From: Candidatus Baldrarchaeum yapensis
Lineage (GTDB): Archaea > Asgardarchaeota > Baldrarchaeia > Baldrarchaeales > Baldrarchaeaceae
Assembly: GCA_016840465.1 (NCBI GenBank)
Contig: JAEOSH010000015.1
Location: 1-32,000, forward strand
DNA length: 32,000 bases
Direction: 5' to 3'
Below the pieces are notes generated by a model. It was not told the origin of the DNA. It did no database searches and was given only the letters and a program-made list of their open reading frames with translations. Positions 21,996 to 32,000 of the stretch are shown in pieces (position 1 is the stretch's first letter; every line of letters starts with the position of its first letter). Position numbers and translations under genes: made by a program.

Positions 21996-22469
21996 TTATT
22001 CCTCTATTGGTTCAAAGTACTCTATGTTTAGTATGCTTCCCGTCCTCTGCTCTCTCCCCACTTCGCCTTTACCCTAGCGCCCACCTTTATCTTCTCAAGT
22101 GCCTTCTTCGGATCTGATAGGTCAACTCCTCCAACGAAATGTGGTATTCCCTCATCCGCGTCATCGAGTTTTATCCAAGCCACACAGTACGGAGGATCGG
22201 GAAGCCTCGTGAACTCCAGTAGCAAATAGTAAATGTAACGATGGTGTCCGTGTCCTTGACCTCTACCCACTCCTCCATTGGAACTAGGCATCTGTCACAG
22301 AACAACCGTGGAGGCACTATTACTCTCTTACACTTAGGGCAACGCAATCCTAGAATCTTCTTCTGCTTCATGCCCTCGTAAAAATTTGTTCTAATTTGAT
22401 CCGCAGAGTGTCTGTATGGAATCTCTACTTTGCGGGGACAACCACAAACTCCTCCTTCTTCCCTCCTAT
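21996..22469 (-). pseudogene. DUF35 Zn-ribbon/OB-fold (acyl-CoA-binding, thiolase-associated) pseudogene
   Basis: Reconstructs as KKEEFVVVP/KVEIPYRHS...CPKCKRVIVPPRLFCDRC...TFTICY/LEFT.LPDPPYCVAWIKLDDAD...KAKW/REQRTGSILNIEYFEPIEE* with three single-base frameshifts (~22433, ~22219, ~22055). The start codon appears to be ATA behind an AGGTGA RBS. Confidence 0.85.
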
Positions 22470-22490
22470 TAAACTCACCTCTTAACGTAA

Positions 22491-22505
22491 GGCAGAAACG
22501 TATAG
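22491..22505 (+). repeat. 15-bp exact copy of the left end of the 24191-24413 element
   Basis: GGCAGAAACGTATAG occurs at 22491-22505 and at 24191-24205; the flanks differ on both sides. Confidence 0.7.
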
Positions 22506-23067
22506 TGTTGCATTCGTTGCTTTTATGCACTTTTCCATGAGCCAAGTACGATGCGAGATTATCTACTCAATTTCCAAAATTGACTCACATCCAGCCGATA
22601 TTTCTAAAACATGGATTATTGAAAATAGATGGTGTCTTTACCTTGAGGTACATGGCCACGAATATTCCCTATGCTACCAGTAAACCAGAAATCTTCATAC
22701 GCAACCCTTTCAGGAATAATAGAGAGGATTTGCGAGAGAGTTCTCGAAAACTTTGGATGAATTTCCCAAGACGACCCATATTGCAAGTTCTTAAGAAGAC
22801 TATTTAAGTGACATCCTATTAGTTCTCTTTTTTTAATCGGTTCGAAAAAACATTTAATGTTCGATTTTTCTTTAAGAATTGACAGGAAAATGTGCGTAAT
22901 AAGAATCATATAGTCATCGGAACGAGCCGCTAATTCGATAACAGTCCTTACGACATTTATAAAAAATCTTGCTTGGCTCCTCAGATAACATTTATTTTTT
23001 GCAAGAGTGTGCATATTATTGGGGGCGTGATAAGGAATACTATACATTGTTCGTGGAGGACTATAGC

Positions 23068-23664
23068 ATGAGCAATAAAAGCGCGATAGGAGAACAGGCG
23101 CAAGAGCGAGGCTTCCCAGTGGGCAAACTTAAGGAATGGATAGAGAAAGGCCACCTTAGATACGACGAGAACGGGAGGCTAATTCTCGGAGTCCCAGTTG
23201 TGATAATTCCACGTGAGGATCTTGCGGAAATTCAAAAAGCGGCGGAAGAAATCCTAGGAGAAAATGGGGCCGCCGTGATAATGTACAGGGCTGGCTTTAA
23301 GCATGGTTACCGACATGCCGGAATTTACAAAAATAATTTTGGACTAGAGCAATTTGATATATTAGATAAACATCTCTCGGTGACCGCAGCGACAGGATGG
23401 TGGGGAAAGCACGAAATCGTGGAAAAGTCCCTAGATCCCCTGAAGGTCGTTATTCGCTTCTATAACAGTATCGCAGAGGAATGGAAAGGTACCGACAGAA
23501 GTGTATGTCACATATGGCGCGGAGTCATCGCAGGGATTCTGACATTTATTGCCGAGAGCATGGGGAAACAGGTGAAAATCCGGTGTTACGAATCAAAATG
23601 TGTGGCAAAAGGCGACCCCTACTGTGAAATAGTTGCAGAGGAGTTGTTTGAGGTTAAAAAATGA
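23068..23664 (+). CDS. V4R (4-vinyl reductase) domain protein
   Basis: AAVIMYRAGFKHG, GWWGK, CHIWRGVIAGIL and CYESKCVAKGDPYCEI are the V4R Cys/His pattern. GGAGGA RBS precedes the ATG at 23068. Confidence 0.88.
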   Translation: MSNKSAIGEQAQERGFPVGKLKEWIEKGHLRYDENGRLILGVPVVIIPREDLAEIQKAAEEILGENGAAVIMYRAGFKHGYRHAGIYKNNFGLEQFDILDKHLSVTAATGWWGKHEIVEKSLDPLKVVIRFYNSIAEEWKGTDRSVCHIWRGVIAGILTFIAESMGKQVKIRCYESKCVAKGDPYCEIVAEELFEVKK

Positions 23665-23734
23665 TCACACGGCTCAAAGTATCATTTTCATGTTTTTATA
23701 GAACTGGAAAATAAACGTTGAGCAAGAAAGTACG

Positions 23735-24131
23735 TCATATGCGAAATCTTACGGAGGTCAATGCGCCCAGAACAAATAACTCCATAAGGGCTTGGAGCAG
23801 CCCGGGAAGCCTCTCAATCGCAACTTCCCCAACGGCCTGAGCATGTGCGATGTCTCATTCTCCCTGAAGAATCTCTTTCCACAGTTTTGCGGTGGTCTTT
23901 ATTGTATAGTTTGGCTTCTCAGCCTCCCCTTCGTAGAACTCCGCCTTTCCGTCCTTCAGATCTATATAGAATGGATCCTCTCCCTCAAGCTTTAGTTGTA
24001 TTACTCTGTTTATTGATACTGTTTTTCTGAAGATCCTCATGAGCATCTTGAGTTCTCCCCTCAGAATCCTTTCTGCAGTCTCTATCCTATTCCACTTTCA
24101 CATTTTTTGTGAGTTCATTCACCTCGCCCAT
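23735..24131 (-). pseudogene. SCP2 sterol/lipid-binding domain pseudogene
   Basis: VIQLKLEGEDPFYIDLKDGKAEFYEGEAEKPNYTIKTTAKLWKEILQGE*DIAHAQAVGEVAIE is SCP2-like, with an in-frame TGA at 23855-23857 and a disrupted 5' end. Confidence 0.7.
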
Positions 24132-24144
24132 CCTTATCACCACC

Positions 24145-24585
24145 ATCACTTGACCTTCCTTAAATTTTAGCATTTCACGCATGTCATCTGGGCAGAAACG
24201 TATAGAACTTTTGCGGCTCAGAACCTTTATAAAGGAAGGCCACGTTACGCCAAGTGAGCTCCGCCCGGGATGTGGGAAGGGCGGGGTGAAGGAGTCAGAT
24301 GGATGTGCGGAGTCATCGTTCCCCGCGAAAAGCCCATCGATGAGGCTCGAGGCGGGAAGGCTCTTTGTCATGCGTGCATCAAAAGTTATGAAAGTGGCAG
24401 AGAGTCAGAACGGTTGCAATCTCCCTATCAAACTCCTTTGCAGTCCTAACGACCTTTTCTACGAGTTCAGCGTTGCTCCTTACCAGAACTCCCTTCTTGA
24501 GGAAAACGTTATCCTTAAGTCTGACCTTCACGTGTCTTCCCATGACGATCGAAAGCGTCGCCATCGGGAACTTATACGCACCAAT
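24145..24585 (-). pseudogene. kce: 3' relic of a BKACE/Kce (3-keto-5-aminohexanoate cleavage enzyme, DUF849) gene, interrupted by an insertion
   Basis: IGAYKFPMATLSIVMGRHVKVRLKDNVFLKKGVLVRSNAELVEKVVRTAKEFDREIA | PDDMREMLK matches the family C-terminus (GGHVRVGLEDN...SNAELVE...REIATPDEAR). The two halves flank 24191-24413. Confidence 0.78.
24191..24413 (+). mobile_element. Non-autonomous ~220-bp IS607/TnpB-derived element (MITE-like) with omegaRNA-like 3' part
   Basis: It interrupts the kce relic, has GG at both junctions and repeated AGAAC-type motifs at both ends, and contains a palindromic TATA CTTTATAAAG and a GC hairpin. Its 3' 120 nt are repeated at 31882-32000. Confidence 0.7.
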
Positions 24586-24830
24586 GTTGCTATAGTAAAC
24601 TACTCCTATGAAGGACAACCGATGAAACCACCGTATGTACTGGGAATGGTGAGGCTTGACGGGGCGGATAATGACTTTAGGCACTTCATAGGTGAGGTCG
24701 ATCTGAGCGACCTAGAGAAGGCCGCAAAGTAACTTGGAGAGTAAGCTTGGCGCGAAAGTTGAGGTTGTTTAGAACGAAGAAAGGAAAGGGATTTCACTGA
24801 TATTAGGTACATCATAAGGATTAATCGAGT
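24586..24830 (+). pseudogene. 3' fragment of a second DUF35 OB-fold gene
   Basis: AIVNYSYEGQPMKPPYVLGMVRLDGADNDFRHFIGEVDLSDLEK, then degraded KLGAKVEVV*NEERKG/TDIRY. It is a paralog of the 21996-22469 relic and lacks the 5' half. Confidence 0.75.
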
Positions 24831-27359: not shown

Positions 27360-28136
27360 ATGGGTGAGAGGAAGTATACAACTCTTGAGTTGATGGCGTG
27401 TGTTGCTGCAAGATTATTAGAGGACAAGAAGGCAGTATTTGTAGGGACAGGACTTCCAATGATTGCAGCGTCCCTTGCACAGAGAATGCATGCACCAAAT
27501 CTTCTGATAATTTTTGAGGCTGGCGGCATAGGGCCGCAGATACCAGTACTGCCAATATCCGTTGGTGATTCTAGAACGTTCTACAGGGCAATTGCAGCGT
27601 CAAGTATGCATGATGTGATGTCACTCTCACAAAAAGGGTATGTCGACTACGGGTTCCTCGGTGCTGCCCAGATAGACATGTACGGGAATATAAACACCAC
27701 CGTGATCGGAGATTGGGAAAGACCCAAAGTCAGGCTTCCAGGTAGTGGTGGTGCAAACGATGTCGGGTCCCTCTGCCATAGGACTATCATAATAATGAGG
27801 CAAGATCCCAGAAGGTTCGTGCCCAAGGTGGACTTCATAACCACCCCTGGGTACTTAGATGGACCAGGTGCTAGGGAAAAAGCAGGACTTCCGGCAGGGT
27901 CAGGACCTTACAGGGTAATAACACAGTTGGGCGTTTACGGCTTCGATGAGAAAACAAAGAGAATGAAATTGCTGTCGGTGCATCCGGGTGTTACGATAGA
28001 GGACATTAAGAAAAACTCAAGCTTCGAAATTATAATTCCGGACGAGGTCGATACCACAGAGCCACCGACTGAAGAGGAGCTTAAGATACTACATGAAATT
28101 GATCCAGTGGGCATGGTTCTCGGAAGAAAGAAATGA
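27360..28136 (+). CDS. Family I CoA-transferase subunit B (glutaconate CoA-transferase beta-like)
   Basis: FVGTGLP, IFEAG (catalytic Glu), GFLGAAQIDMYGNINTT, RLPGSGGAND, VDFITTPG and LLSVHPGVT. Confidence 0.92.
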   Translation: MGERKYTTLELMACVAARLLEDKKAVFVGTGLPMIAASLAQRMHAPNLLIIFEAGGIGPQIPVLPISVGDSRTFYRAIAASSMHDVMSLSQKGYVDYGFLGAAQIDMYGNINTTVIGDWERPKVRLPGSGGANDVGSLCHRTIIIMRQDPRRFVPKVDFITTPGYLDGPGAREKAGLPAGSGPYRVITQLGVYGFDEKTKRMKLLSVHPGVTIEDIKKNSSFEIIIPDEVDTTEPPTEEELKILHEIDPVGMVLGRKK

Positions 28137-31450: not shown

Positions 31451-31881
31451 GAGATGAAACCCCACCTGATCGTAAAAATTAGGTGATATTGTAGTATATA
31501 AAAATAAGCATCGCACCAATTACTGCTCACGGAAAATTCTGGGATGAGCAGTGTATACACGTATTGGCGAATTTGCATTTTAGGAGATGTCTTCCTTCAT
31601 TTTCCAGCGGTGGTAGAATGTCCGTATTTGTATGTTGTGCTCGGAAGTACCAATAACAGCCTCATCTGAGGAAATGAAAACCTTTTACTCCGACATGCGA
31701 GTTTTACATTCTTTTGTTCCGTAAAATGCGATGATAGATTTTCTAGTGGTTTCTTTGTATTAGTGCGTTCCCGGTGAGTTTATCCGGCGCATTTTGCAGG
31801 TTTATCAATACTTTGTAAGAGGTGGAGATTACTTTCTCTGAGGAGGCCTTGTTGAGAAATATGCTCGTTTCCCCTTTTGGA

Positions 31882-32000
31882 CCGTTCTGACTCTCCGCCA
31901 CTTTCATAACTTTTGATACACGCGTGGCGGGGAGCCTTCCCGCCTCGGGCCTCATCGATGAGCCTTCGCGGGGAACGGTGACCCCGCACATCCATCTGAC
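31882..32000 (-). mobile_element. Right end of an IS607/TnpB-family element (tnpB 3' tail/omegaRNA-like), running off the window
   Basis: Aligns to 24294-24413 with 12 substitutions and 1 indel (hand alignment) and ends in CAGAAC-GG. It translates as MCGVTVPREGSSMRPEAG, which I recall as resembling the C-terminal tail of archaeal TnpB proteins. Confidence 0.65.

Follow-up and report, generated by a model that had tools for sequence, protein, structure and literature searches.

A 221-bp insert at positions 24193 to 24413 (plus strand) of a 32,000-nt stretch of the Asgard archaeon Candidatus Baldrarchaeum yapensis (GenBank assembly GCA_016840465.1, contig JAEOSH010000015.1, positions 1 to 32,000; hereafter, the window) is a decayed copy of a family of protein-less, IS607-derived mini-transposons. 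The family is a non-autonomous IS607-family element of the type called a MITE (miniature inverted-repeat transposable element), without tnpA and tnpB, and its shared 3' part is, judged from the sequence, the scaffold of a TnpB guide RNA (omegaRNA). We propose that these elements are mobilized in trans by a TnpA, make their own transcript, and supply it in trans to a TnpB; taken as a whole, this mechanism is probable. The window belongs to contig C76 of a genome (G000) that comprises 2.27 Mb in 100 contigs and is 96% complete.

The insert interrupts a relic of kce, the gene for a beta-keto acid cleavage enzyme (BKACE), on the minus strand. To the right of the insert, that strand encodes the C-terminal part of the enzyme, as evidenced by a Pfam BKACE match (PF05853; E value of 8.5e-16) to profile positions 205 to 265 of 274. 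The piece upstream of the insertion (24414 to 24684, minus strand) aligns to a paralog and ends ...REIA, and the piece downstream (24087 to 24191, minus strand) begins PDDMREML...; an intact kce paralog on contig C47 aligns contiguously and without a gap across the REIA-x-PDDM junction (RDIAAPDDVRKML). At the left junction, ...CATCTGGG gives way to CAGAAACGTATAG from 24193, while the right end reads ...GAGAGTCAGAACGG / CAGAACGG, has its last base at 24413, and is followed by TTGCAATCTCCC. The left flank, TGGG (24189 to 24192, plus strand), includes the GG crossover core (24191 to 24192) and resembles a target or transposon-adjacent motif (TAM), as indicated by the flanks of the family and the published IS607 TAM, TGGG. 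Alignment with 11 other copies and a full-length IS607 element identifies the insert as a shortened member of a 266- to 279-bp family, and a covariance model of the 3' module (R1) scores it at 115 bits. Relative to the family consensus, the window copy is missing ~22 nt directly after GTATAG, which removes the subterminal GTGTTGCAT motif, and about 28 to 40 nt inside the 5' hairpin, H0. The terminal CAGAAACGTATAG is kept in its left end (24193 to 24223, plus strand), and the same terminus occurs at C96:26179 and on metagenome contig L113.

An earlier note on this DNA, made from its letters, had described a kce relic split between REIA and PDDM by a ~220-bp insert that starts (T)GG and ends CAGAAC/GG. 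It had also reported a palindromic TATA box, a CCGCCC/GGGCGG hairpin, and a 120-nt multi-hairpin segment recurring at 31882 to 32000. All of these features are borne out. The BKACE match and the gapless C47 paralog establish the split, the TATA box is CCTTTATAAAGG at 24224 to 24235, and the hairpin arms lie at 24261 to 24266 and 24279 to 24284. The recurring segment (31881 to 32000) is an inverted repeat of the last ~120 nt of the insert, to which it is 88 to 94% complementary.

Across the genome, BLAST, motif scans, and alignment recovered 10 complete copies of 266 to 279 bp with no open reading frame (ORF), plus partial copies cut by contig ends, and R1 has 21 matches on 18 contigs, well beyond what chance would give. 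The elements, which measure 221 to 279 bp when the window copy is included, are dispersed and contain neither a conserved ORF nor a transposase gene. Copies begin (G)GGG and then CAGAAACGTATAGTGTTGCATT and finish with GAGAGTCAGAACGG, and similarity between them opens at C[A/T]GAAACG and closes after CAGAACGG. GG stands at both junctions (GG/C[A/T]GAAACG ... CAGAAC/GG), with no target-site duplication and no terminal inverted repeats. Immediately outside GG...GG, the flanks differ in every copy and are unrelated to one another. The four bases left of the element are GGGG in 10 copies, TGGG in 2 (the window copy and the full-length IS607 element), and GAGG or AAGG in 3; 12 of the 15 copies thus have a KGGG left flank, and the right end is always ACGG.

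Some copies coincide with rearranged flanks. For instance, two copies in this genome (C39:1-30 and C69:3436-3470) have an identical left flank and different right flanks, and metagenome contig L110 carries the right flank of the C27 copy but not its left flank. Such cases suggest that MITE copies were sites of rearrangement or of chimeric assembly. Where the insertion lies in a recognizable ORF (C89, C92, C69, and the window copy), the MITE is antisense to that ORF in four of four cases, although the sample is small.

The sole full-length element in the genome that shares these ends is 1,848 bp long (C96:26179-28026). It starts GGG and then CTGAAACGTATAGTGTTGCATT and ends ...GAGAGTCAGAACGG; it shares with the MITEs the left terminus C[A/T]GAAACGTATAGTGTTGCATT, and its last module (~116 nt) matches the window copy at 81% identity over ~117 nt. 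Its TnpA (C96:26236-26850; 204 amino acids) combines HTH_17/MerR and Resolvase (PF00239; E value of 6e-26) domains. Its TnpB (C96:26822-28132; 436 codons) matches Cas12f1-like_TNB (E value of 1e-21) and retains the RuvC motifs GVDVN, ALESL, and ADRD with their D/E/D residues intact, in alignment with solved TnpB and Cas12f structures. In a metagenomic element, L113, the exact CAGAAACG... terminus accompanies a tnpA that is 87% identical. A search for a Y1 transposase (Y1_Tnp, PF01797) found no match in this 96%-complete genome, while control genomes were positive. Because the partner TnpA is a serine recombinase and no Y1 transposase was found, the family is assigned to IS607 rather than IS200/IS605.

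The earlier note had already read the insert as IS607-type, and the Resolvase-plus-HTH TnpA of the parent-type element agrees with it. The TGGG motif that it named agrees with the TAM and target motif published for the IS607 TnpB of CboIStron (10.1101/2023.11.20.567912), and the copy count and parent search that it suggested bear it out, yielding ~20 copies and the C96 element with the same left terminus. Its picture of a tnpB element that lost nearly its whole coding region while retaining promoter, ends, and RNA scaffold holds overall, but two details need revision. The promoter is not that of the parent's tnpA but a separate TATA block, and although the genes are gone, the MITE is not the product of one simple internal deletion; the ~90 nt of coding sequence that link two RNA modules were lost as well.

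Three more IS607-type tnpA/tnpB loci in the genome (C96:31800-35400, C55:20800-23200, and C23:735-2628) belong to other subfamilies, with TnpA 36 to 54% and TnpB ~27% identical. Contig identities connect two relatives, G008 with Ca. Asgardarchaeum abyssi of the same phylum and G002 with a Ca. Baldrarchaeota metagenome-assembled genome (MAG) of the same order. A full-length parent was sought in G002, which yielded only a truncated tnpB (residues 276 to 404); contigs of the other relatives end too soon.

The case for a guide-RNA scaffold comes from structure and position. The last 117 nt of the insert (24297 to 24413, plus strand) form the predicted core, comprising three hairpins, H1 (24306-24310/24323-24327), H2 (24333-24338/24351-24356), and H3 (24359-24371/24394-24406), and then a terminal AGAACGG (24407-24413), as evidenced by RNAalifold and pair counts. 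Within H1-H3, an alignment of 15 sequences drawn from five genomes has 95.6% of its cells paired, with compensatory change in 12 of the 24 pairs; no shuffle out of 500 did as well, and slid controls were 38 to 54% paired. A 37-sequence alignment (A4), itself fitted to the model, shows compensatory change in 22 of the 24 pairs. Moreover, the module sits at the 3' end of genes for TnpB homologs (57 to 81% identity) from Bathyarchaeia, Archaeoglobi (Archaeoglobaceae), Thermococci (Thermococcus), Thermoproteota, Baldrarchaeota, and Asgardarchaeum. In at least 20 TnpB loci of several archaeal phyla, the R1 and TnpB matches stop at the same point, near residue 402.

The 5' stem of the predicted scaffold, H0 (24259 to 24286, plus strand), is formed in the window copy by CUCCGCCC pairing with GGGCGGGG, its interior having been deleted. 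In the minimum-free-energy fold of this copy, H0 has 8 to 9 bp and H3 has 13 bp, including a U-A pair where other copies have C-G. The counterpart of H0 in full-length tnpB genes measures 9 to 12 bp and straddles the first zinc-finger CxxC; its in-register pairing is 79%, compared with 26 to 48% when shifted, with several pair types per position. Compensatory changes in H0 also occur in the G003 MITE. Altogether, the RNA modules that MITEs retain (H0 and H1-H3) total about 185 nt, and MITEs are without the ~90-nt linker between H0 and H1, which encodes the second CxxC and the RuvC-III DRD motif. The H1 loop (UCGUUC in the window, 24316 to 24321, plus strand) is a candidate pseudoknot partner of the terminal GAACGG (24408-24413), as suggested by the minimum-free-energy fold; in the family, the loop (CCGUUC) and GAACGG are both nearly invariant, so covariation is uninformative.

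RNA structure and protein coding overlap in the tnpB-bearing relatives. About 215 nt before the right end of L049, L073, L077, and other tnpB loci, H0 is encoded across the first CxxC and the NG(Q/H)R codons, which lie 29 nt downstream. Because H0 covaries across the first CxxC, RNA structure constrains the zinc-finger coding sequence. The C96 tnpB ORF has no stop before the right end, which falls at about codon 402, and reads through the whole scaffold and 106 nt of host flank; in other phyla, too, the alignment of TnpB homologs extends as far as the right end (about residue 402). On these grounds, the TnpB C terminus and the scaffold are dual-coded, with a protein tail set by the insertion site.

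Upstream of H0, a BRE-like AGAAC (where BRE denotes the transcription factor B recognition element) and the palindromic CCTTTATAAAGG together make up a predicted archaeal promoter directed toward the right end (24220 to 24235, plus strand). The corresponding block, AAAACC(C/T)TTATAAAGGA, is the least variable 5' segment of the family (variability of 0.046 versus 0.184 in the adjacent spacer), and a MITE of a different genus in the same order preserves it intact at an overall identity of only 69%. The center of the TATA block lies 27 to 30 nt upstream of the first H0 base, the usual TATA-to-start distance in archaea. From this geometry, transcription of the window copy is predicted to start at 24256 (plus or minus 2 nt; plus strand), 27 nt past the TATA center and 2 to 3 nt before H0; in consensus copies, the equivalent base is the G before GCUCCGCCC.

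Four other protein-less subtypes carry sequence-unrelated TATA boxes 27 to 33 nt before their first RNA module. These subtypes are represented by G001:C110 and G004:C291, by C75 of this genome, by C82:5707 of this genome with L114 and L115, and by metagenomic L106. Positions of TATA hexamers upstream of 1059 long ORFs showed a weak, broad enrichment at -40 to -60, which was of no help in calibrating the promoter here. In one full-length tnpB gene of Ca. Asgardarchaeum (L084:~590-610), the N-P-Y-K codons just upstream of the zinc finger have exactly the sequence of the MITE promoter core, AACCCTTATAAA, and the TATA box of the MITEs may have been recruited from coding sequence.

Reconstruction of empty sites illuminates how the elements insert. 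Deletion of the C89 copy plus one GG rejoins, in frame, the halves of an archaeal ATPase gene, which match PF01637 at profile positions 1 to 56 and 109 to 224. The same element-plus-one-GG rule holds for the C92 and C69 copies. In CboIStron, TnpA_S inserts at TGGG with a strict requirement for GG, and TnpB needs a TGGG TAM, whereas the scaffold ends in UCGG, so that the occupied site goes uncut (10.1101/2023.11.20.567912). By analogy, the KGGG left flank and ACGG right end of the MITEs parallel the TGGG and UCGG of CboIStron.

According to the mechanism that we propose, the full-length IS607 TnpA of C96 would move the MITE in trans, inserting it after (G/T)GGG with no target duplication. The TATA box would start a transcript of ~160 to 190 nt at the foot of H0. 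This RNA would cross H1-H3 and AGAACGG into the flank, and each copy would thereby produce the scaffold joined to its own guide of 16 to 20 nt. If transcription crosses the right end of the window copy, the guide would be the right flank, TTGCAATCTCCCTATCAAAC (24414 to 24433, plus strand), which begins exactly where similarity between copies ends, after GG. The C96 TnpB would bind the MITE RNA in trans and cut the element-free site, which consists of KGGG and the flank, and recombination repair from an occupied copy would restore the element. The occupied site would be spared because the scaffold ends in ACGG, not GGGG or TGGG. We infer promoter activity, flank read-through, and TnpB binding and cleavage from sequence features.

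When 15 guide-equivalent flanks were compared with their own genome, there was no second match of at least 16 nt, and the best covered 14 of 15 positions (one mismatch; E value of 3.5). Since the flanks lack a second genomic match, the only target would be the element-free allele of each site. A role of this sort in homing and retention has been shown for IS605 and IS607 TnpB (10.1101/2023.03.14.532601; 10.1101/2023.11.20.567912).

Several observations weigh against the proposed mechanism. First, none of 4227 Rfam families, including RAGATH-type models, matched the window at the gathering threshold, and a search of four loci at E values up to 5 returned only chance-level matches to unrelated families. 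With no curated model to draw on, the omegaRNA assignment depends on where the module lies and on its covariation. The covariance-model and Rfam comparison envisaged by the earlier note yielded a structured RNA with strong covariation at the 3' end of tnpB homologs but no Rfam match. Second, the sites bound by TnpA_S in CboIStron include a TATA portion, and by analogy, the palindrome could also, or instead, be a protein-binding site. Third, the C96 element that encodes TnpB differs from most MITEs in the H3 loop and in the left end beyond the first ~30 nt, and compatibility between the two is assumed. Fourth, the window copy is without the subterminal GTGTTGCAT and part of H0, and its removal by the element-plus-one-GG rule leaves the kce frame one G short (GGG left versus GGGG needed). 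The full-length C96 element, which lies in a sulfatase gene, shows the same one-G shortfall (C96:26176-26178 / 28025-28027).

The missing G bears on both the register of insertion and the state of the window copy. A single register rule, in which the occupied site minus the empty site equals two Gs, fits C89, C92, and C69 and was rejected as a general rule, as both TGGG-flanked elements need a net gain of one G. An alternative GC core fits the two TGGG-flanked elements but not C89, and it was likewise rejected. The one-G offset could reflect a crossover register specific to the subfamily, the subsequent loss of single nucleotides, or an assembly error in a homopolymer. Given its left-end deletion and one missing G, the window copy is possibly dead for transposition; it may have lost mobility while its scaffold still folds.

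An alternative is that these mini-transposons work only as DNA. The element would be a TnpA substrate that carries the scaffold as part of its right end, with no transcription from the TATA box and no use by TnpB. The terminal GAACGG and the TTGCAAC-type motifs in the H3 loop could serve as TnpA DNA sites, just as the CboIStron sites with their TATA portion allow for the palindrome. Yet the stems change in a compensatory manner between MITE lineages, for example, in H2 and H3 between the copies of this genome and the MITE G003:C92, and in the U-A pair that replaces C-G in H3 of the window copy. The coding linker is gone while all four stems are kept, and several subtypes have unrelated TATA boxes at a constant distance. 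Moreover, TnpA_S excised a minimal CboIStron design with 60-bp ends. Because MITEs keep all their stems through compensatory changes even though 60-bp ends sufficed in CboIStron, we argue that the RNA itself is under selection, and we regard the DNA-only explanation as unlikely.

A domesticated guide is a much less probable explanation. Here, a promoter-driven RNA would program TnpB, or a nuclease-dead relative, against another host or viral locus, in the manner of TldR or a CRISPR-like defense. The promoter-like block that each element carries and the many copies with different guides would suit such a role. However, the 15 flanks have no second genomic target, the guides are whatever adjoins each insertion, and the cognate TnpB retains its RuvC motifs. 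A host-regulatory guide was rejected because the search with these 15 flanks gave no credible second genomic target.

The remaining two explanations have next to no probability. Palindrome-associated transposable elements (PATEs) of the IS200/IS605 type, moved as single-stranded DNA by a Y1 tyrosine transposase, have the same general look, being ORF-less with an omegaRNA-like 3' part, but this reading was rejected on the strength of the ends shared with a serine-recombinase element, the GG core at both junctions, and the absence of a Y1_Tnp match in the 96%-complete genome with controls positive. A small protein, encoded either by a 59-amino-acid ORF (24270 to 24449) that an ATG in the H0 loop opens in the window copy or from the GTG AAG start-like site that the earlier note had pointed out, finds no support: the former, the sole ORF through the element, closes after 5 codons in consensus copies and, in the window, exits the element into unrelated flank, so the reading was rejected for a frame that is not conserved among copies.

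Beyond the mechanism that we propose, one can speculate that the MITEs are RNA-only hyperparasites of a TnpB homing system, in which selection streamlined the scaffold, keeping all stems and removing the ~90-nt linker, and added a promoter exactly at its 5' end. We offer this idea tentatively and think it rather doubtful. If it is true, ~20 loci would each program one shared nuclease, a dispersed multi-guide arrangement that would represent a conceptual step toward trans-acting guide modules.

The RNA module was detected in 18 of the 151 Asgard genomes sampled, with the most matches in the genome studied here. Four other Asgard genomes (G069, G020, G081, and G075) have 9 to 14 scaffold-model matches each, many of them at contig ends, which suggests similar expansions there. 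More copies come from metagenome contigs, which also supply an element that bears tnpA and has the exact MITE terminus. The covariance model allows repeat annotation that can account for broken contigs and disrupted genes in this and related MAGs. The natural deletions also amount to a map of the scaffold, in which H0, H1-H3, and AGAACGG are kept while the ~90-nt linker and the H0 interior are dispensable, and this map could guide work on thermophilic archaeal TnpB.

Other traces of the family lie elsewhere in the window. A second copy of the same subfamily occupies 31882 to 32000 on the minus strand (R1 score of 120.7 bits) and runs on to ~32118-32150, past the end of the window; its left end is degenerate and without GG. 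This copy and the one at 24193 to 24413 are inverted relative to each other, with right ends inward, and bracket 7.5 kb of metabolic genes; recombination between the two could flip the 7.5-kb segment. Positions 22000 to 24800 are a patchwork of gene relics. Within it lies a solo left end of the family (22493 to 22537, plus strand), which reads AAGG and then CAGAAACGTATAGTGTTGCATTCGTTGC..., is without a right end, and adjoins truncated ChsH2/DUF35-type zinc-ribbon and OB-fold fragments.

ORF-less omegaRNA mini-elements are known for IS200/IS605, and the present family is a clear IS607 example of that element type. The guide-RNA-without-nuclease outcome has also arisen in the mechanistically different IS607 family, in an Asgard archaeon, and with roughly 20 RNA-only copies per full-length element. 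Literature searches, incomplete in coverage, found no description of an IS607-derived, promoter-bearing version. PATEs are ORF-less IS200/IS605 derivatives that often encode omegaRNAs needing TnpB in trans (Meers et al., 10.1101/2023.03.14.532601); they occur in Haloquadratum (PMC3119063), and a PATE-derived RNA is expressed in Halobacterium (PMC4615843). As in PATEs, the left and right ends of the MITEs are fused, the protein genes are lost, the scaffold is kept, and TnpB would be needed in trans. Unlike the MITE family, with its serine-recombinase ends and GG core, PATEs have hairpin ends and are mobilized by Y1 as single-stranded DNA. Also, the study of sense overlapping transcript RNAs (sotRNAs) saw no classical BRE/TATA, whereas a conserved BRE/TATA precedes the MITE scaffold.

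Stand-alone, effector-less omegaRNA loci of OMEGA systems, with no adjacent nuclease gene and presumed to act in trans, were reportedly described by Altae-Tran et al. in 2021. In contrast to such loci, the MITE scaffold lies inside a mobile unit that has both transposon ends and verifiable empty sites. TldR proteins, nuclease-dead TnpB repressors with fixed guides (10.1101/2023.11.30.569447), likewise use a TnpB-type scaffold away from the canonical transposon context. Unlike in that system, the C96 TnpB keeps its RuvC residues, the MITE guides have no host target, and the elements are still transposon-like.

The systems that come nearest in chemistry are the IS607 tnpA-tnpB-omegaRNA elements CboIStron (10.1101/2023.11.20.567912) and ISFba1, which has a right-end element RNA (reRNA; PMC11061315). 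The MITEs have in common with them a GG core, a G-rich TAM that equals the insertion motif (TGGG), a scaffold that ends in NCGG at the right end, and a flank-derived guide, and they share their ends with an element encoding a MerR-HTH/Resolvase TnpA and a TnpB. They differ in being archaeal (Asgard), in having no tnpA, tnpB, or intron, and in having no Rfam match; moreover, the element's own TATA box would yield the MITE RNA as a primary transcript, with no processing from tnpB mRNA.

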